Below are positions 1 to 5,913 of a DNA stretch of 5,913 nucleotides, in pieces (the first letter of the stretch is position 1; each line of letters opens with the position of its first letter). The position numbers were made by a program, and so were the translations under genes. Origin of the DNA: a virus; the IMG/VR virus record IMGVR_UViG_3300020030_000040, positions 1 to 5,913 of that record, one strand, 5' to 3'. The notes beneath the pieces are model-generated. The model had not been told where the DNA came from, searched no databases, and was given only the letters and a program-made list of their open reading frames with translations.

Positions 1-121
1 CCGTTATTCCGTCCAATCCTGATCGTTTTAGTCGACTTCTTCCTATTGGCAGCAGCTCCGCCGTTTCGATGACTGGCGTGCAAACTATTCCCCAGCTGGC
101 TATTGCTTCGCGTCTTCAGGA
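1..121. repeat. Terminal direct repeat, left copy (overlap from linearising a circular genome)
   Basis: Bases 1-121 (ccgttattccgtccaatcct...cgcgtcttcagga) match 5793-5913 base for base by manual comparison, at an offset of 5,792 nt. The repeat lies inside a reading frame that is continuous across the junction. Confidence 0.95.
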
Positions 122-872
122 ATACAAAGATTTGCTTGGCGCTGGAGGTAGTCGATATAGTGACTGGTTGGAAACTTTTTTTGCTTCAAAGATCGAGCAT
201 GTTGATCGGCCCAAATTGCTGTTTAGTGCATCGCAGACTGTTAACGTTCAGATTGTTATGAATCAAGCCGGACCGAACAATTTTGGTAACTCGAGCACGA
301 ATGGTCCCTTGGGACAGCAAGGTGGCGCTATCGCTTTTAATGATCGCCTTGGTCGTCGACAGTCTTATTACTTCCGCGAGCCCGGTTATATGATTGACAT
401 GTTGAGCATCCGCCCTGTTTATTATTGGTCGCAGATCAAGCCCGACTATTTGAATTATCGAGGCTCTGATTATTTCAACCCAATCTATAACGATATAGGA
501 TATCAGAGTGTACCTAATTGGCGCTTTGGCAATCTTGTTGGTGGTGTTGTCGAAACCACTTTTTCGCAAGAGCCTTGTTTTAACGAGTTTCGCTCCTCCT
601 ATGATGAAGTTTTAGGCCAAATCTCCAGTACTGCTGGAAATGTTGATGGTCGATCCCTTTATGCTTATTGGGTGCAGCAGCGTCAATTACATTGGAGTAC
701 CTATTGGCCTTCAAAGGCTGATTATGCACCTGCTCTTTTTGTCGATTTGTCGCAGGTTAATTCTCCTTTCAGTTCTAACCTAGAAGATAATTTCTTCGTG
801 AATATGTCCTATGCTATTCAAAAGAAGAATCTCATCAATAAGACTTTTGCAACCCGTTTGTCTAACCGTTAA
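1..872 (+). CDS. VP1: Major capsid protein VP1/F, C-terminal part (5'-truncated by the window edge; first full codon at 3; stop TAA 870-872)
   Basis: Frame 3 is open from the left edge, and track ORF 69..872 is only the part after an internal Met. It contains IPQLAIASRLQEYKDLLGAGGSRYSDWLETFFASKIEHVDRPKLL. This matches the conserved L-x-x-A-x-x-L-Q-x-x-x-x-x-x-x-x-G-G-x-R-Y-x-x-x-x-x-x-x-F block followed by D-R-P-x-x-L of Microviridae VP1/F. Later blocks such as QEPCFNEFRSSYDEVLGQ and FFVNMSYAIQ are typical of the C-terminal jelly-roll strands. Confidence 0.93.
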   Translation, partial: VIPSNPDRFSRLLPIGSSSAVSMTGVQTIPQLAIASRLQEYKDLLGAGGSRYSDWLETFFASKIEHVDRPKLLFSASQTVNVQIVMNQAGPNNFGNSSTNGPLGQQGGAIAFNDRLGRRQSYYFREPGYMIDMLSIRPVYYWSQIKPDYLNYRGSDYFNPIYNDIGYQSVPNWRFGNLVGGVVETTFSQEPCFNEFRSSYDEVLGQISSTAGNVDGRSLYAYWVQQRQLHWSTYWPSKADYAPALFVDLSQVNSPFSSNLEDNFFVNMSYAIQKKNLINKTFATRLSNR

Positions 873-883
873 TATTGTATCCT

Positions 884-1192
884 ATGGCTTTAGATTGGAT
901 GATTGAAGATCGTGAAGATTACGTTTCCCGTGGAGAGCGTATTTTGTCTGTTCTCGATGGCTCTGGTTCCGTCGATGTCCTTCCCGGTCGTCCGGATGTT
1001 GAAGCTTCTAGCTCTGATTTCGACAAAGGCGAGAAGTTTGATCCTGATATTGATTTTGACCCTAACTCTTTCTCTCGTATGGATAAGTTTGACGGCCTTG
1101 AGGTAGGTCAAGAACTTATTGATAGTGAGCTTGATACCCGCAAGGGCGACAGCTCGCAGCGGGCGAAAAATATCACTTCTGAAGAAAAATAG
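884..1192 (+). CDS. Hypothetical acidic protein, 102 aa (ORFan; possible scaffolding-type protein)
   Basis: The track ORF 875..1192 begins at a TTG (875-877), and the first ATG is at 884, 11 nt after the capsid stop. By my count 49 of 102 codons end in T, matching the bias of the recognisable genes. The product has 27 D/E against 13 K/R and includes FDKGEKFDPDIDFDPNSF. I recognise no homology. Confidence 0.6.
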   Translation: MALDWMIEDREDYVSRGERILSVLDGSGSVDVLPGRPDVEASSSDFDKGEKFDPDIDFDPNSFSRMDKFDGLEVGQELIDSELDTRKGDSSQRAKNITSEEK

Positions 1193-1222
1193 TACTTTCT
1201 TTACTTGACGATATATGCTACG

Positions 1223-1300
1223 TGCGCGGACCCCTCTGAGCAGAATGCTTGAATGGTTAGAGGTTATTGGTAGCGACTGCAGGAGAGGCCGCGCATTTTT
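1223..1300 (+). terminator. Branched GC-rich stem followed by a T5 run (terminator-like structured spacer)
   Basis: TGCGCGG (1223-1229) pairs with CCGCGCA (1289-1295). After a 3-nt bulge, CCTCT (1233-1237) pairs with AGAGG (1284-1288). The stem encloses the hairpin AGCA-GAA-TGCT (1239-1249) and is followed immediately by TTTTT (1296-1300). It sits downstream of the capsid and acidic-ORF block. The enclosed region is far longer than a canonical intrinsic-terminator loop, so the function is uncertain. Confidence 0.35.
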
Positions 1301-1325
1301 CTATCGTTCTTTAATTTTTTAAGCT

Positions 1326-1517
1326 ATGTCTGATACTAAACCCCCCTTCTATAAGTCGAAGGCGTTTTGGACGCTTATTTCGTCTATTGTTGCCGCTCTT
1401 ACGGCCTTTTTCCTCGCTTCGTGTTCTGCACAAGCGAAGATAGCTCGCACTGGTGTTCATATTGATACTGTTCGCGTAGATTACATTATCCGTTCTAACA
1501 ACTTTACGCTCCCGTAG
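1326..1517 (+). CDS. Small predicted lipoprotein, 63-aa precursor and 31-aa mature lipopeptide
   Basis: ATG at 1326 and TAG at 1515-1517, 1 nt before the pilot ATG at 1519. By my count 30 of 63 codons end in T, like the genuine genes. The product MSDTKPPFYKSKAFWTLISSIVAALTAFFLASC|SAQAKIARTGVHIDTVRVDYIIRSNNFTLP has a basic n-region, a hydrophobic core and a lipobox L-A-S-C, with Cys33 at codon 1422-1424. Confidence 0.65.
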   Translation: MSDTKPPFYKSKAFWTLISSIVAALTAFFLASCSAQAKIARTGVHIDTVRVDYIIRSNNFTLP

Positions 1518-1518
1518 T

Positions 1519-2883
1519 ATGCAACTCATTGATTTCAAAAGCTACGTTGACCCTGTTTCTACCGGCGCTATTCTTGGTGCTGCTGGCCTTTCTGCTGGCG
1601 GTCAGGTAGCCTCGGGTCTTTTCAAGCCTTCTCTTAAAAGGCAATGGAAGTATCAGCAGAAGCAGATGAAGCTTCAGCAGCAGTACGCCTTAGAGCAGAT
1701 GCAGAAGCAAGGCGAGATCAACTACGCCAATTGGCAGAAGCAATTTGATTACGAAAACGCTTATAATGATCCCTCGAAGGTCTTCAGTCGCTATCTTAAG
1801 GCCGGTATTACACCTGCCGCGGTTCTCGGGTCTAGCGGCGTTGGCGTTAATGCTACTATGTCTGGTGGTTCTGCCGGTTCTGTGGGTGCTTCCGGCCCCT
1901 CCGGTGGTTCATTTGACTTCTCTAGTCCGCTGCCTCCTGGTATCGGTTCTACTGCTGCTGGAACTGCCCTTGATGCTATGGGTGTCAACTCAACTATTGA
2001 GCGTAATAAGGCCGCTGCGAATCGCGATGATGCTGAGGCTGCGAATATTCGTAGTAATACCTTTGAGCCTGAGTTTAATAAGGCACGTGCCGAAGCTTCT
2101 AAGGCTGTTGACGAGGCTCTCGCTAATAAGGAGATCGAGGCTGCCGCGGCTCTTAAATCTGAGCGTCTTTTGAATGATCTCAATAATACGCTATTGTCTC
2201 TCACGATGGACGCCCGTGTCGAAGAGATTAAGGCGTTTGCTGATACTGCTAAAGAAGAATTAAGGCAATTGCGCGTCCAGGGTACGCAAATTGAGCGCAT
2301 GGTTAATGCTCGAATCCTCGTTCTTGAAACGCAAAGCGCTCTCAACCAATCTCTCTCTGGCCTTGCTGCTGCTAATGAGGAGGGACAGCGTATTAATAAC
2401 CTTGAACTCGCTAACGAACTCTCTCGTCAATGGGACAAGCGTTTTGACGTTGAAATTCCTAATCCTGCTTATGAGGCGAATTTGCGTTCCAAGAATCCTA
2501 TCCAGCGCGCTAATCCTGGTCCGAAGTCGTTTAAAGTTTCTATGTCTCTCAAGGACTTTTACGATAAGACCGCTATTAACCAGGCTCAGGCTTCTGATTT
2601 TCTTCCTGAAGAGGCTCGTGTTGCTCTTCGAAATGCTAAGCTTGATCCTTATATTGAGATCGGTAAGGCTCTTGTTGGTGTTGCTGGTAGTCTTGGTGGT
2701 GCCGCTATTGTTCGTGGTGGTATGGCTAGCGCTGCCAAAGGCTTCGCCCAAACCTCCGCTGGCGGCTCCTCGTCTTCGTCCCGTACTACCGTGCTTGACG
2801 GTGGAGGTAACGTTAGAGGCTATGTACTGAAAGAGGTGTCTGGTAGTTCTCATGGTACTTCTTCTCGTTATAACCGATATTGA
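1519..2883 (+). CDS. VP2: DNA pilot / minor capsid protein VP2 (phiX174 H analogue), 454 aa
   Basis: The N-terminal Gly/Ala-rich hydrophobic segment GAILGAAGLSAGGQVASGLF resembles the phiX174 H N-terminus (GAIAGGIASALAGG...). It is followed by a Q/K-rich block, then NYANWQKQFDYENAYNDPSKVFSRYLKAGITPAAVLG. That matches the conserved N-x-W...Y-N-x-P...R-x-K-x-A-G-(L/I)-(N/T)-P block of gokushovirus-type VP2. The middle is a long charged helical/coiled-coil region and the tail is Gly/Ser-rich. The gene sits directly downstream of the capsid module. Confidence 0.85.
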   Translation: MQLIDFKSYVDPVSTGAILGAAGLSAGGQVASGLFKPSLKRQWKYQQKQMKLQQQYALEQMQKQGEINYANWQKQFDYENAYNDPSKVFSRYLKAGITPAAVLGSSGVGVNATMSGGSAGSVGASGPSGGSFDFSSPLPPGIGSTAAGTALDAMGVNSTIERNKAAANRDDAEAANIRSNTFEPEFNKARAEASKAVDEALANKEIEAAAALKSERLLNDLNNTLLSLTMDARVEEIKAFADTAKEELRQLRVQGTQIERMVNARILVLETQSALNQSLSGLAAANEEGQRINNLELANELSRQWDKRFDVEIPNPAYEANLRSKNPIQRANPGPKSFKVSMSLKDFYDKTAINQAQASDFLPEEARVALRNAKLDPYIEIGKALVGVAGSLGGAAIVRGGMASAAKGFAQTSAGGSSSSSRTTVLDGGGNVRGYVLKEVSGSSHGTSSRYNRY

Positions 2884-2929
2884 ACAGTTTTGTTCCTATT
2901 TTGAACCTCCATCTTGTCCTTTTTCGTTG

Positions 2930-2937
2930 TATATTTG
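2930..2937 (+). promoter_or_regulatory. Possible Bacteroidota-type -7 promoter element (TAnnTTTG)
   Basis: TATATTTG at 2930-2937 matches the TAnnTTTG consensus exactly and lies 26 nt upstream of the ATG at 2964. TTTG motifs occur at 2889-2892 and 2900-2903 within a tandem TTTTGnnCCT repeat. Their spacing of 26 nt or more is longer than the 19-21 nt expected for a -33 element, so this is only a weak call. Confidence 0.2.
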
Positions 2938-2963
2938 TACTGTAAACCAATAACCACATTATC

Positions 2964-3284
2964 ATGAAAAGAGCAAACAAGACTTCTAAGACTTACGACC
3001 TGTTGGTCGATGTTCTAGATTATGCGTTCGTTGAATGGCTTGTCCGTCGAGGTGTATTTACTGCCTTTAGATTAAATTTCGATCGTGTATCTTCGTCTCA
3101 GGGACCCTTTCGAGATCGCTTGCGTGATTTCATTCGACTTTCTCTCTCTATCAACTCTTTTAGCCCGTCAGACCTCGTCTCTGCTGCTTTCCTGTTCGAA
3201 TCGACACCTGAAGGCGTTGGGTTCTGGATGCGTCAAAATGCTGCTTGGAAACGCTTTTATGCCGAGCTTCAGAAGAAACATTAA
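2964..3284 (+). CDS. Hypothetical protein, 106 aa (ORFan)
   Basis: ATG at 2964 and TAA at 3282-3284. About 42 of 106 codons end in T by my count. The gene is on the same strand and tightly packed with its neighbours. The C-terminal segment FESTPEGVGFWMRQNAAWKRFY resembles a T-P-E-G-x-x-(F/Y)-W motif that I recall from small phage and bacterial proteins of unknown function, but I cannot verify this. No function is assigned. Confidence 0.6.
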   Translation: MKRANKTSKTYDLLVDVLDYAFVEWLVRRGVFTAFRLNFDRVSSSQGPFRDRLRDFIRLSLSINSFSPSDLVSAAFLFESTPEGVGFWMRQNAAWKRFYAELQKKH

Positions 3285-3295
3285 ATTATATCATT

Positions 3296-3619
3296 ATGAC
3301 ACAGATTCACGTTGTTATTCGCCGAATTAATCCTGCCTTTAAGGTTGATCTTGTTCAGATAGGCTACATTAAGGATGGTCAGTTCGCCTCACTTCCTCTT
3401 GATACTCTTGAGCATACTCCTGTTGTAGACTATGTCGATCATTCAACTATTTCCGATTCGCCTTATATTGATCATAGCGCTATTTCTGCTCTCATAGAGG
3501 CCCTGATTGCGTATCCTGGTTTTTCGGTCGAGTTTTTCGAGAATACGCTTGTTCTTATGTTTGATTGTAAATTCAATGACGATGAAATCACGAAGAAAGA
3601 AGAAGGGAAAGGGAACTAA
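3296..3619 (+). CDS. Hypothetical acidic protein, 107 aa (ORFan)
   Basis: The track ORF 3245..3619 begins at a TTG that overlaps the previous gene. The first ATG at 3296 lies 11 nt after that gene's stop and is the more likely start. About 55 of 107 codons end in T, the strongest bias in the window. The product contains an internal peptide repeat, VDHSTIS / IDHSAIS, and a K/E-rich tail. It occupies the pilot-to-Rep position where gokushoviruses carry scaffolding protein VP3, but I see no VP3 motifs. Confidence 0.6.
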   Translation: MTQIHVVIRRINPAFKVDLVQIGYIKDGQFASLPLDTLEHTPVVDYVDHSTISDSPYIDHSAISALIEALIAYPGFSVEFFENTLVLMFDCKFNDDEITKKEEGKGN

Positions 3620-3652
3620 GGTTGTTACCCGCCCGCTTGGTGGAAAAGTTCT

Positions 3653-3738
3653 TTAAATTAATTGAACCCCAGGGGACAGCCGAAGGCTGTGGCCACCGCG
3701 AAGCGGTAAGGTACCCCCCTGCGGGTTCTTCCATTTAA
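3653..3738 (+). other. About 86-nt three-way-junction DNA/RNA structure with two C-GAA-G triloop hairpins (candidate ssDNA origin or priming signal)
   Basis: All pairings are hand-checked.
- Outer stem: TTAAAT (3653-3658) pairs with ATTTAA (3733-3738).
- After an internal loop, GAACCCCAGGGG (3664-3675) pairs with CCCCTG(C)GGGTTC (3716-3728), giving 12 bp with C3722 bulged.
- Hairpin 1: ACAGCC-GAA-GGCTGT (3676-3690).
- Hairpin 2: ACCGC-GAA-GCGGT (3695-3707), which contains GCGAAGC (3698-3704).
There is no ATG anywhere in 3620-3766. Confidence 0.55.
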
Positions 3739-3766
3739 CCCGTATATACCTTAGAAGTATTTTATA

Positions 3767-4837
3767 ATGCCTTGTTTGTCGCCCATATGGATACGTAATC
3801 GTCGCTATTTCGACAAGAAGAATCCTTGTCGTAATGGTTCTGACGTTGCTAAATCTGCCTTAGCTCTTCGTCCCTGGGACATTTCTCGTCAATGGCTTAT
3901 GGTCCCGTGCGGAAAGTGTGAGGAGTGCTTGCGTCGTCAGCGCAATGATTGGTTTGTCCGTCTCGAGCGCGAGCTTGCTCGCTGTAAAGCTGAGTCTCGG
4001 CAGGCTATTTTTATTACAATAACTATATCACCGAAGTACTATGATGAAGCATTGCGAGATCCTTCTAAGTTTATCCGACGATGGAATGAGCGCATTCGTC
4101 ATAAAATCGGCCATTCCTTTAAACATGCGTTTTTCCAGGAGTTTGGTACCCATCCAGAAACAGGATCGGCGCCACGTCTTCACTTTCACGGCTTTCTCTT
4201 TGGAACCGATTGTATGTACAATGATATTCGATCGGCTGTCCGTGATCTTGGCTTTGTTTGGCTTGCGAAAGGCACGCATAAGCGTGCGAGATACGTTGTC
4301 AAATATGTTACAAAACAAATTCAATTTAACCCTACGGAAATATCCGATCAAAATGTTGTTTTAGATGGAAAAGTTATACCTTTATCTTGCCTCCTCCAAC
4401 ATCGCCGTTATACGCGAAAATTCATATCTGCTGGCGTTGGTGATTTTCTTGGTTATATGCCTCGCCCTTCTGCTCGTATTTCGTCGTGGTCTTATTACGA
4501 TTTTGAGAGGCGTATCAATTATAATTACTCGATCCCTCGATACTATCTTAGGTATCTCAAACCGGAAGACGAAGTTTCTCGCTCGATTACCGCTGCTGAT
4601 TCTTATGCACGTTTTAGCAAGTCTCCTTTGGTTAAGCGTATTGTGTCTCTGTGCGTTGAGCGGTTTGGCCTCAATTCCTCCGTATCCAGTAGAGCGTCAT
4701 ATACGTGGGAACAAAAGCAAATAATGCGTTTTTCCGCTTCTTCTCGTAAGATGCCGGATCTTGATCCCCCTACTTGGCTAGATTTGGATATTCTCCAGTT
4801 TTGGCGAGATCATTATAAACTTCAACTAATTATTTAA
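3767..4837 (+). CDS. VP4: Rolling-circle replication initiation protein VP4 (phiX174 A analogue; HUH endonuclease), 356 aa
   Basis: N-terminal VPCGKCEECLRRQRNDWFVRLERE matches the P-C-G-x-C-x-x-C...W-x-x-R block of gokushovirus-type VP4. Motif I is FITITI (4010-4027). The HUH motif is H-F-H in RLHFHGFLFG (cac ttt cac, 4181-4189). The catalytic motif III is RYVVKYVTK, with two Tyr residues separated by 3 residues (4292-4294 and 4304-4306). The stop is 3 nt before the capsid ATG. Confidence 0.95.
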   Translation: MPCLSPIWIRNRRYFDKKNPCRNGSDVAKSALALRPWDISRQWLMVPCGKCEECLRRQRNDWFVRLERELARCKAESRQAIFITITISPKYYDEALRDPSKFIRRWNERIRHKIGHSFKHAFFQEFGTHPETGSAPRLHFHGFLFGTDCMYNDIRSAVRDLGFVWLAKGTHKRARYVVKYVTKQIQFNPTEISDQNVVLDGKVIPLSCLLQHRRYTRKFISAGVGDFLGYMPRPSARISSWSYYDFERRINYNYSIPRYYLRYLKPEDEVSRSITAADSYARFSKSPLVKRIVSLCVERFGLNSSVSSRASYTWEQKQIMRFSASSRKMPDLDPPTWLDLDILQFWRDHYKLQLII

Positions 4838-4840
4838 TTT

Positions 4841-5913
4841 ATGGGAAGACAACCTTTTATTTCTCACGTTGTGAATGGTTACTCTCGTTATGATGTTCCT
4901 GAGAGCAAGGCCTTCACGTGTACGGCGGGTATCCTTTACCCGGTGCGTATCGACTTTATTAACGCTCGTGATCGCGTATCTATTGAGCAGGGTATTGACG
5001 TTCGCAGTAACCCTCTTGCTGTGCCGACGTTTAATCCTTACACTATTCGGCTTCACCGCTTTTGGGTGCCTCTGCAGCTGTACCATCCAGAATTGAGGAC
5101 GAATAGTAGTAAGTTTGATATGAATAGCCTCTCTTTAAATTGGATTAATGCCGTTCCGGGAATCCCTTCTTCCGGCGTAACACCCCAGGTTACTGCGACT
5201 TTTCCTAACTCGCTTATGTATTGGCTGCGCGTATCTAACCGTTCTGTTGATTTCACTACACCTGCTTCAACCTCCGGTGTTGTCCTCCCCGCGAATGTTG
5301 TTGGTGGTGTTTGGGCTAACGCTGATACGTACCTTGCTTATTGGGATATCGTTCGCAACTATTACGGTTATTCGCAGTGGGGGCTTTACTCTTTTGCTTG
5401 GCCCTCTTCCTGGTATTATCTTGTAACAAATCGCTCTACCGCTTCCAACGGTACCTACGGATTTAACGAGAATTCTGCGGATTCGTATTTTACACAGCGT
5501 TACGGCAATCTTGAATTCCTTGATGCCTATTTTGAGAGCCAATTCTATCCTTCGGCTGTATCATCTTCTAATAATACCTATTGTCGCTCTGCATTACTTA
5601 GGCAGATTATTGCTTCTGATATCGCTTCTACTGGTGCTGCCGCTGGCGCTTCCGGCGATGGCTATCCGGTTGCATCTCAACCTAGTGGGATTCAGATCTG
5701 GGGTACTTCCGCTCCCCTTGATCAATTTGGTGCCGTTGACGATACGAAGGGCATTGCTGAGCCCATTATTTTCAATCTTGCCCATCCTATGGCCGTTATT
5801 CCGTCCAATCCTGATCGTTTTAGTCGACTTCTTCCTATTGGCAGCAGCTCCGCCGTTTCGATGACTGGCGTGCAAACTATTCCCCAGCTGGCTATTGCTT
5901 CGCGTCTTCAGGA
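4841..5913 (+). CDS. VP1: Major capsid protein VP1/F, N-terminal part (continues across the circular junction into 122..872; 607 aa joined)
   Basis: The ATG at 4841 is the first codon after the Rep stop (TAA 4835-4837). I translated frame 2 by hand to 5913 and found no stop: MGRQPFISHVVNGYSRYDVPESKAFTCTAGILYPVRIDFINARDRVSIEQGIDVRSNPLAVPTFNPYTIRLHRFWVPLQLYHPE... The pattern F-T-C-x-x-G-x-L-x-P ... P-x-F-N-P ... R-x-x-R-F-W-V-P-L-x-L is the conserved N-terminal block of Microviridae capsid proteins. The ORF is absent from the supplied track only because it has no stop inside the window. Joined length is 952 nt (4841-5792) plus 872 nt, giving 1,824 nt or 608 codons, so the frame is preserved. 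Confidence 0.93.
   Translation, partial: MGRQPFISHVVNGYSRYDVPESKAFTCTAGILYPVRIDFINARDRVSIEQGIDVRSNPLAVPTFNPYTIRLHRFWVPLQLYHPELRTNSSKFDMNSLSLNWINAVPGIPSSGVTPQVTATFPNSLMYWLRVSNRSVDFTTPASTSGVVLPANVVGGVWANADTYLAYWDIVRNYYGYSQWGLYSFAWPSSWYYLVTNRSTASNGTYGFNENSADSYFTQRYGNLEFLDAYFESQFYPSAVSSSNNTYCRSALLRQIIASDIASTGAAAGASGDGYPVASQPSGIQIWGTSAPLDQFGAVDDTKGIAEPIIFNLAHPMAVIPSNPDRFSRLLPIGSSSAVSMTGVQTIPQLAIASRLQ
5793..5913. repeat. Terminal direct repeat, right copy (identical to 1-121)
   Basis: Same comparison as for the left copy. The window ends exactly where the duplicated segment ends. Confidence 0.95.

Follow-up and report, generated by a model that had tools for sequence, protein, structure and literature searches.

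What does a gut microvirus do with a gene of 63 codons placed directly before the gene for its pilot protein? These microviruses are among the most abundant phages of animal guts. The gene, designated ORF63, lies in the virus record IMGVR_UViG_3300020030_000040 of IMG/VR, positions 1 to 5,913 of which (5,913 nucleotides (nt), called the window below) were analyzed, and an earlier note on this DNA had read its product as a small lipoprotein and a candidate factor for lysis, release or exclusion. Lysis and superinfection exclusion are acknowledged gaps for microviruses outside the phiX174 group, where the lysis determinant is an open question (PMC3394797, PMC7062461), and ORF63 is a concrete candidate. 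The open reading frame (ORF) was found to be a real and strongly constrained gene, its product is probably a lipoprotein precursor, and a role in permeabilising the host envelope was tentatively placed first among its possible functions.

The ORF63 gene and its predicted product

ORF63 runs from ATG 1326 to TAG 1515-1517, and its 63 codons encode MSDTKPPFYKSKAFWTLISSIVAALTAFFLASCSAQAKIARTGVHIDTVRVDYIIRSNNFTLP. T-ending codons accounted for 30 of the 63 (48%), compared to 49% in VP1 and VP2, in agreement with the codon bias described in the earlier note. A protein search across 5.8 billion sequences recovered 358 homologues after clustering at 90% (63 clusters at 50%), and the best 120 were 81-95% identical. 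The gene was exactly 63 codons long in all 82 related loci, which comprised 80 complete or near-complete IMG/VR genomes, one GenBank genome and the window, and both the ORF and its lipobox Cys were kept in every one of them. Variation fell mainly on third codon positions (entropy 0.27/0.15/1.11 for the three positions), and the mean non-synonymous diversity (pN) was 0.087 against a synonymous diversity (pS) of 0.627, with a ratio of non-synonymous to synonymous rates (dN/dS) of about 0.07, which is the pattern of coding DNA. Both halves of the protein were constrained, with pN/pS of 0.10 for residues 1-33 and 0.18 for residues 34-63. On the tree, many sites had 15-25 synonymous and 0 non-synonymous changes; K12, A13, H45, V49 and R50 reached 21-25 synonymous changes with no replacement, and the freely varying sites were 4, 6, 39, 40, 42 and 61-63. 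That ORF63 is a real gene is practically beyond doubt.

A single nucleotide, T at 1518, separates the stop codon from the VP2 ATG at 1519, just as had been noted earlier. The TA(G/A)-T-ATG junction was kept in all 82 loci, even when the N-terminus of VP2 was unrelated or the last codon of ORF63 differed, and the spacing was 2 nt in more distant members of the clade. ORF63 is probably translated just before VP2 and coupled to it in the window's clade. A +1 frameshift fusing ORF63 to VP2 was considered and rejected: relatives differ freely in their last sense codon (CCG, CCC, CCT, GTG, ATA, ATT, ATG, TTG and others), which leaves the end of the gene without a conserved slippery site.

Judged from its sequence, the ORF63 product is probably a prolipoprotein of the signal peptidase II (SPII) type, lipidated and cleaved. 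It has a positively charged n-region (K5, K10 and K12 in the window), an uncharged hydrophobic helix and a lipobox, as had been claimed, and the Lys-rich n-region, the uncharged helix and the [S/G/A]-Cys pair were kept across the family. The lipobox rule applied was of the PROSITE PS51257 type, {DERK}(6)-[LIVMFWSTAG](2)-[LIVMFYSTAGCQ]-[AGS]-C with the Cys at position 15-35; the window's F29-L30-A31-S32-C33 fits it with Cys at position 33, and so do 282 of 293 modules of the family. The other 11 keep [S/G/A]-Cys but carry E, N or C at -2 or -3. Residues K12, W15, A24, F29 and C33 were invariant across 31 diverse members, and S11 nearly so. The Cys was likewise invariant in 120 close homologues, the 82 loci, 53 representative modules and 119 further sequences, preceded always by S, G or A in lipoboxes that included LASC, LSSC, LTSC, TTSC, TVSC and TVGC. 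This signature was kept even in members less than 30% identical in the mature part. The flank N-terminal to the helix had a mean net charge of +4.1, compared to +0.8 in the 15 residues after the Cys, and it was the more positive one in all 31 diverse members, so an N-in/C-out topology is predicted by the positive-inside rule.

Weak database matches of the family fell on the signal regions of known lipoproteins (YgdI/YgdR, E=0.21). The homologues DAM05898.1 and DAW10193.1 in NCBI nr bear the automatic name "MAG TPA: lipoprotein [Microviridae sp.]"; the lipoprotein prediction itself is already in GenBank in this form, a point missed by the earlier note. In the literature searched for a microvirus lipoprotein or lipobox, no paper discussing the ORF63 family was found, and the statement that no Microviridae lipoprotein has been characterised held there.

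Conservation was centred on the helix. Among the 31 diverse members, mean pairwise identity was 33% for residues 1-10, 73% for residues 11-33 and 26% for residues 34-63. Since synonymous sites in the helix codons vary freely (pS 0.62), the constraint acts on the peptide, and the fact that a signal peptide is the best-conserved part of the family suggests that the helix itself acts specifically in the membrane. The earlier focus on the 31-residue mature lipopeptide is consistent with these data as far as the predicted peptide goes, but the conserved core is the helix (73% vs 26%). One member, in Dulem virus 210 (locus L109, 2392-2628), is a lipobox ORF with a different and longer N-region and helix (…HRLILWIVVVLALVLFGFFCSC) and a recognisable mature part, so the helix of this family is also replaceable.

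In the mature part, the core R41-G43-x-H45-x-D47-T48-V49-R50...R56-S57-N58 showed 0 non-synonymous vs 9-23 synonymous changes per site. The family as a whole has several discrete mature types of about 30 amino acids (aa), each conserved within itself (...GVHIDTVRVDYIIRS...; ...RHYVVQSASS.KSGDTTRTTITYEQ.GNFKRP; ...HRVQQTA...TIIYDSRGNVKK; and others), which are probably distant homologues because D47 is nearly invariant. Residues 40 and 42 were hypervariable, with 11 and 9 different residues among 120 homologues and more non-synonymous than synonymous changes; they lie in codons 39-42 (1440-1451) and are flanked by the invariant R41 and G43. The alternating pattern at residues 39-43 suggests one free face of a beta-strand. 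AlphaFold2, run with 119 sequences, modelled the helix with a predicted local distance difference test score of about 90 and drew the mature part, at 50-68, as one long helix; given the Gly and beta-branched composition of the mature part, this long-helix model was not trusted.

Distribution of the module and its fused form

Of the GenBank genomes, 45 matched the C-terminal part of VP1 at 60% identity or more, and each of them had a lipobox ORF (61-78 aa) immediately before VP2, members missed by tblastn having been checked by hand. ORF63 is a core gene of this clade of Alistipes-associated (Bacteroidales) gut microviruses, here called clade A. The module was also present in a second clade (clade B), whose VP1 is about 25% identical to that of the window, and there it stands elsewhere, upstream of a small gene and Rep and not of VP2. 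Between the two clades the module is 61-82% identical at a VP1 identity of about 25%, so either exchange or exceptional constraint accounts for its similarity, and a portable module is suggested: a core gene in one clade, apparently passed between distant clades that share the host genus Alistipes. In a sister clade with VP1 about 45% identical, ORF63 was absent and no annotated protein with a hydrophobic segment was found.

Clade B was found as integrated prophages in Alistipes montrealensis (NZ_JAGYXY010000001, L100, ~7867-13508) and in Alistipes sp. (GCA_019425285.1, L101, 8001-12916). Further integrated microvirus prophages of Alistipes were at L103, L104, L085, L087, L124 and L150, and the same host genes, of the HTH_3 and HIT families, adjoin several of the prophages. 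The phage joins host DNA about 65-160 nt 5' of the lipoprotein ORF, and integration thus leaves the greater part of the phage intergenic region at the opposite end of the prophage. Wherever an origin was stated, the source was an animal or human gut sample. The closest GenBank records of the window were faecal Microviridae with about 80% nucleotide identity across part of the genome; these relatives belong to "Family 18", whose predicted host is Alistipes (Kirchberger et al. 2022, PMC9239249, supplementary file 2). Together with the Alistipes prophages and with the lack of a Shine-Dalgarno site before any gene start of the window (judged by eye), which fits a Bacteroidota host, this prediction is the basis for taking the host as a diderm bacterium of the Bacteroidota.

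A separate sample of 80 metagenome loci, selected by the N-terminal module alone and all from clade B, revealed two forms of the gene. The ORF lengths were bimodal, with 61-63 aa in 40 loci, 185-202 aa in the other 40 and none intermediate; the long forms came from at least 8 sequence lineages and all ended in a tail resembling a second peptide of the window. This peptide, MKSRRKKKGKGTKVVTRPLGGKVL, is encoded by a basic ORF (3582-3656) that was kept with its ATG in 77 related loci, and in the last codons of the 107-aa ORF that it overlaps, synonymous diversity was down to 0.07. We take it to be J-like, as it resembles J of phiX174 and G4 in size, charge and its (V/L)GGxx(hydrophobic) end, the ...VFTVGGTRM of L104 being especially close. 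No match to it was found in Pfam or PHROGs.

In the fused ORFs, residues 1-60 and the last ~33 behaved as coding in frame, while the ~105 residues between them were coding in the +2 frame only, where another gene lies. Synonymous resampling gave a probability of 0.05-0.5 per genome for a stop-free frame by chance, so selection seems to keep the fused frame open. The J-like peptide had its own ATG only where it was not fused. If ORF63 is a portable single-gene effector of the kind considered below, the in-frame fusion of clade B would be a second, new way to express a packaging peptide.

Possible functions of ORF63

Among the functions considered, that of an envelope-permeabilising or lysis factor was ranked first, as a tentative choice. 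The Lys-rich N-terminus would stay in the cytoplasm and the 20-residue helix would insert in the inner membrane as in a Sec-targeted prolipoprotein; Lgt would then diacylglyceryl-modify Cys33, and signal peptidase II would cut before it. The predicted products are a beta-prone lipopeptide of 31 residues on the periplasmic side and, left free in the inner membrane, the signal-peptide helix of 32 residues. Together with the short lipopeptide, this helix may act as an envelope effector, permeabilising or weakening the host envelope late in infection and leading to lysis or release. This assignment was made because conservation peaks in the helix, and the C-terminal part can be replaced or greatly extended. 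The mechanism would be closest to that of the colicin release proteins, in which a stable signal peptide and a small lipopeptide bring about quasi-lysis, and its logic closest to that of phiX174 E, a specific transmembrane helix directed against a membrane-embedded target. A more specific form of the proposal, in which ORF63 is a portable single-gene effector whose SPII-released helix hits a conserved inner-membrane target and whose lipopeptide sets specificity, is conceivable and more doubtful.

Resemblance to colicin release proteins (BRP/Kil), entericidins, Llp of phage T5 and o-spanins had been proposed before. It held in size and architecture only, for BRP, Llp, Cor and o-spanins alike, because no sequence match to those families was found. 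The NCBIfam scan gave no relevant match beyond the signal-peptide level, the sole PHROGs match was phrog_14165 (E=0.011), which has no assigned function, and a PDB sequence search with the family profile returned nothing relevant. No match annotated Llp or Cor appeared in the Pfam, PHROGs and NCBIfam scans, the presence of such models in those libraries not having been confirmed.

The colicin release proteins resemble the ORF63 product in being prolipoproteins of very small size (precursor of ~45-52 aa and mature peptide of 27-35 aa, compared to 63 and 31 aa for ORF63), and the stable signal peptide of BRP is itself part of the lethal or permeabilising activity; an active signal peptide of this kind would fit the unusually conserved helix of ORF63. 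They differ from it in showing no sequence similarity and in origin, ORF63 coming from a single-stranded DNA (ssDNA) phage of Bacteroidales and BRP from an Enterobacteria colicin operon, and the ORF63 signal is longer (32 aa). With phiX174 E and the amurins, ORF63 shares a small-phage gene, one conserved transmembrane helix and a C-terminal part that tolerates replacement or extension, and it would supply the lysis function that is missing for microviruses of the non-phiX kind. However, E is overprinted in gene D, lies N-out/C-in and is not lipidated, whereas ORF63 stands alone, overlapping no other gene, is exchanged horizontally and combines a lipobox with an N-in charge bias in 31 of 31 members, and it does not have the makeup of an E-type gene. 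The E-like overprinted candidate in this genome is ORF 4365-4724.

Several observations weigh against a lytic role. ORF63 had no Pfam match at E<=1, Lysis_col (PF02402), Entericidin (PF08085) and Rz1 included, and the mature part was not modelled with confidence by AlphaFold2. For a lipoprotein signal that is cleaved, the h-region is long, and some alleles have the non-canonical lipobox L-E-S-C. The sister clade presumably lyses without ORF63. The discrete, individually conserved mature types fit specificity or exclusion at least equally well. The in-frame J-like tail of clade B is not explained by a secreted lytic lipoprotein, and it is mainly for this reason that a simple reading of that kind is held with caution. 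Finally, there is a rival lysis candidate, E-like or K-like, in a second conserved membrane protein, the product of ORF 4365-4724.

This last point goes against the view that no other lysis candidate is visible in the genome. Read in the +1 frame of Rep, ORF 4365-4724 gives a 119-aa product that has two hydrophobic segments and ends in a basic C-terminus. The frame was stop-free in 79 of 80 relatives, with a chance of an open frame of 7% by synonymous resampling, and the ORF kept its ATG, its length and its ...PPYPVE... end. In Rep codons ~185-320, pS was 0.25, compared to 0.59-0.70 elsewhere in Rep, with no fall in pN. When synonymous diversity was scanned in every gene of the window's clade, only two clear dips were found, at this overlap and at the end of the 107-aa ORF. 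ORF 4365-4724 is an overprinted gene for a membrane protein and occurs throughout the clade of the window; its product had no match in Pfam or PHROGs. Overprinting is the classical form of a small-phage lysis gene. In clade B, where the scan covered Rep alone among the genes that could hide an overprinted one, Rep showed no synonymous dip and hence no overprinted gene, so the lipoprotein is the only non-structural membrane protein found there. No endolysin, holin or peptidase was found among the gene products of the window by Pfam and PHROGs scans. These last two results speak in favour of a lytic role. The alternative-frame ORFs 1745-2173, 2291-2830 and 5511-5864 were rejected as lysis candidates, being interrupted in most relatives.

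Superinfection exclusion or protection of progeny comes second, as an unlikely explanation. Exposed to the periplasm on either the inner or the outer membrane, the lipopeptide would block a receptor, the VP2 DNA conduit of incoming microviruses, or the ejection of progeny DNA on debris. T5 Llp, Cor of phi80 and N15, and Ltp of the Streptococcus thermophilus phage TP-J34 are precedents, and of the small phage lipoproteins that act alone and have been characterised, most of those known to us are exclusion factors or o-spanins. ORF63 stands beside the pilot gene in both architectures, upstream of it in clade A and as the next gene past the intergenic region in clade B. The several discrete mature types, with the hypervariable sites 40 and 42 in an invariant core, speak for such a role, and the Alistipes prophages carry the module as the first gene past the attachment junction, retaining about 65-110 nt of upstream phage DNA with a TAnnTTTG box. 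Carriage of a gokushovirus confers superinfection immunity by a mechanism that is not known (PMC7062461). The family also matched the candidate defence protein PDC-M02A of PADLOC over residues 27-61, at E 0.019 for the window and 6e-4 at best; this match was obtained in only 3 of 31 members and is not robust.

Llp and Cor are small phage lipoproteins of Gram-negative hosts with genes beside a host-entry gene, and they are plausible models for blocking re-entry or protecting progeny. The scans showed no homology between them and ORF63, though, and the mature part of ORF63 is half their size. Exclusion genes are usually patchy and accessory, whereas ORF63 is core (45 of 45 clade genomes), and its conservation is centred not on a receptor-binding domain but on the signal helix, which a receptor-masking lipoprotein would discard. 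Ltp blocks DNA injection via the DNA-conduit protein of the incoming phage, for which VP2 would be the analogous target; it is much larger, has repeat domains, acts in a Gram-positive host and shows no sequence relationship to ORF63.

The neighbourhood of VP2 also recalls the o-spanins of the lambda Rz1 type. These too are small lipoproteins of the outer-membrane type, and their genes likewise adjoin one whose product has coiled coils and an N-terminal transmembrane segment, both of which have been described for pilot proteins (PMC3091885, PMC3394797). VP2, however, is a virion pilot protein and not an i-spanin, the gene order is reversed, and the mature peptide has neither a Pro-rich region nor an extra Cys for disulfide-linked dimers. 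With no holin-endolysin context and no Pfam Rz1 match, ORF63 and VP2 do not have the features of a spanin pair.

It is improbable that the ORF63 peptide, or the long product in clade B, is a membrane tether or helper instead of a toxin, anchoring or chaperoning VP2 or the DNA-binding J-like peptide at the membrane in assembly, packaging or exit. Such a role would give a reason for the stop-T-ATG coupling to VP2 in clade A and for the 40 of 80 loci read in frame into a J-like tail, without intermediates and with chance probabilities of 0.05-0.5 for the open frame, as well as for the own ATG of the J-like peptide being confined to unfused genomes. Yet the ~105 residues between the conserved ends evolve as non-coding in the fused frame, going by the charge bias, the C-terminal part should be exported and so kept apart from DNA and procapsids, and several lineages have the short form and no J-like peptide. 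We know of no tether of this kind in any microvirus.

Less probable still is an unlipidated, uncleaved single-pass peptide, in which the helix would work like the transmembrane segment of phiX174 E or of the single-gene lysis proteins of ssRNA phages and the Cys would serve another purpose. A stretch of about 20 uncharged residues can form a stable transmembrane helix, and as an SPII signal it would be long; conservation in the family is highest in this stretch, E stands at -2 in some alleles, and large C-terminal extensions are tolerated, as in E fusions. Against this stand the [S/G/A]-Cys pair, a hallmark of SPII, at a fixed distance from the helix start across very divergent members, and the N-in/C-out bias in 31 of 31, opposite to that of E; boxes of the LTSC, TTSC and TVSC types are also typical of Bacteroidales lipoproteins. 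A mere leader ORF that delivers ribosomes to VP2, with a peptide of no function, would fit the conserved stop-T-ATG coupling, which could matter as Bacteroidales genes have no Shine-Dalgarno sites, but it is effectively refuted by the substitution pattern (dN/dS ~0.07, dozens of sites with 15-25 synonymous and 0 non-synonymous changes), and the module is kept in clade B away from VP2.

If ORF63 is the portable single-gene effector outlined above, it would be the first gene for lysis (or exclusion) to be identified in microviruses other than the phiX174 group, and it would offer a new "protein antibiotic" lead against gut Bacteroidota. It is experimentally tractable, being small enough to synthesise and offering C33A with and without globomycin as a mutational handle.

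Gene map and other elements of the window

The first and last 121 nt of the window (1-121 vs 5793-5913) are identical, an exact terminal redundancy by which the assembly closes into a circular genome of 5,792 nt. The + strand carries all the genes, and the features are collected in Table 1. The gene map of the clade was made fuller by the overprinted gene with two transmembrane segments in Rep, the J-like peptide and two structured intergenic elements.

Table 1. Features of the window and of the fused ORF of clade B
Feature	Position	Strand	Description
VP1	4841 via circle junction to 872	+	match to microvirus capsid family
Acidic ORF	884-1192	+	102 aa
Intergenic hairpin and T-run	1222-1296	+	within intergenic region 1193-1325, upstream of ORF63
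ORF63	1326-1517, stop included	+	63-codon gene for a prolipoprotein-like peptide
n-region of ORF63	1326-1361	+	aa 1-12, MSDTKPPFYKSK, net positive
Hydrophobic helix of ORF63	1362-1421	+	aa 13-32, ~20 uncharged residues, AFWTLISSIVAALTAFFLAS, most conserved segment of family
Lipobox L30-A31-S32-C33	1413-1424	+	Cys33 codon TGT 1422-1424
Predicted mature peptide	1422-1514	+	31 residues, CSAQAKIARTGVHIDTVRVDYIIRSNNFTLP
TAG-T-ATG junction	1515-1521	+	ORF63 stop 1 nt before VP2 start
VP2, pilot protein	1519-2883	+	PHROG 8689 "pilot protein"
ORF of 106 aa	2964-3284	+	
ORF of 107 aa	3296-3619	+	
J-like basic ORF	3582-3656	+	24 aa, overlaps 3' end of ORF 3296-3619
Second intergenic region	3657-3766		upstream of Rep, stable predicted ssDNA fold
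Rep, replication protein	3767-4837	+	match to microvirus Rep family
Overprinted ORF	4365-4724	+	119 aa, +1 frame of Rep
Fused lipoprotein-J-like ORF, clade B	L083 1512-2114; L085 2432-3025; L100 7977-8585; L113-L192		~195 aa through another gene's +1 frame into the J-like tail, in half of the clade B loci

Two thirds of the database entries extend ORF63 by 37 codons to a product of 100 aa, starting at an ATG equivalent to window 1215. This frame is closed in the window by TAA 1320-1322 and is broken by stops or one-base indels in about one third of the relatives; the extended ORF was rejected as coding, the region being conserved as nucleic acid, and many of the "100-aa" proteins of this family in the databases are miscalls. 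Their source is the hairpin of the intergenic region, which is outside the gene. The hairpin and the T-run after it are conserved upstream of ORF63, with a fold z-score of about -2 and compensatory pairs among 54 distinct relatives at 1229-1289, 1236-1260, 1237-1259, 1239-1257, 1240-1256 and 1241-1255; a terminator and a single-strand origin element are both conceivable roles. Immediately 5' of the ORF63 ATG, some relatives have an additional structured stretch of about 95 nt inserted.

Scans for promoter and terminator consensus sequences and for the Bacteroidetes TAnnTTTG box near ORF63 gave nothing convincing upstream of the gene, and an Rfam scan of the whole window gave no match. A box of the Bacteroidetes -7 type, TATATTTG, was seen at 2930-2937, 27 nt 5' of ORF 2964, the count of this motif in the window being not above chance. 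The second intergenic region, folded as ssDNA, formed a very stable branched hairpin (-22 kcal/mol, z=-3.9), and none of 200 shuffled sequences was equally stable.

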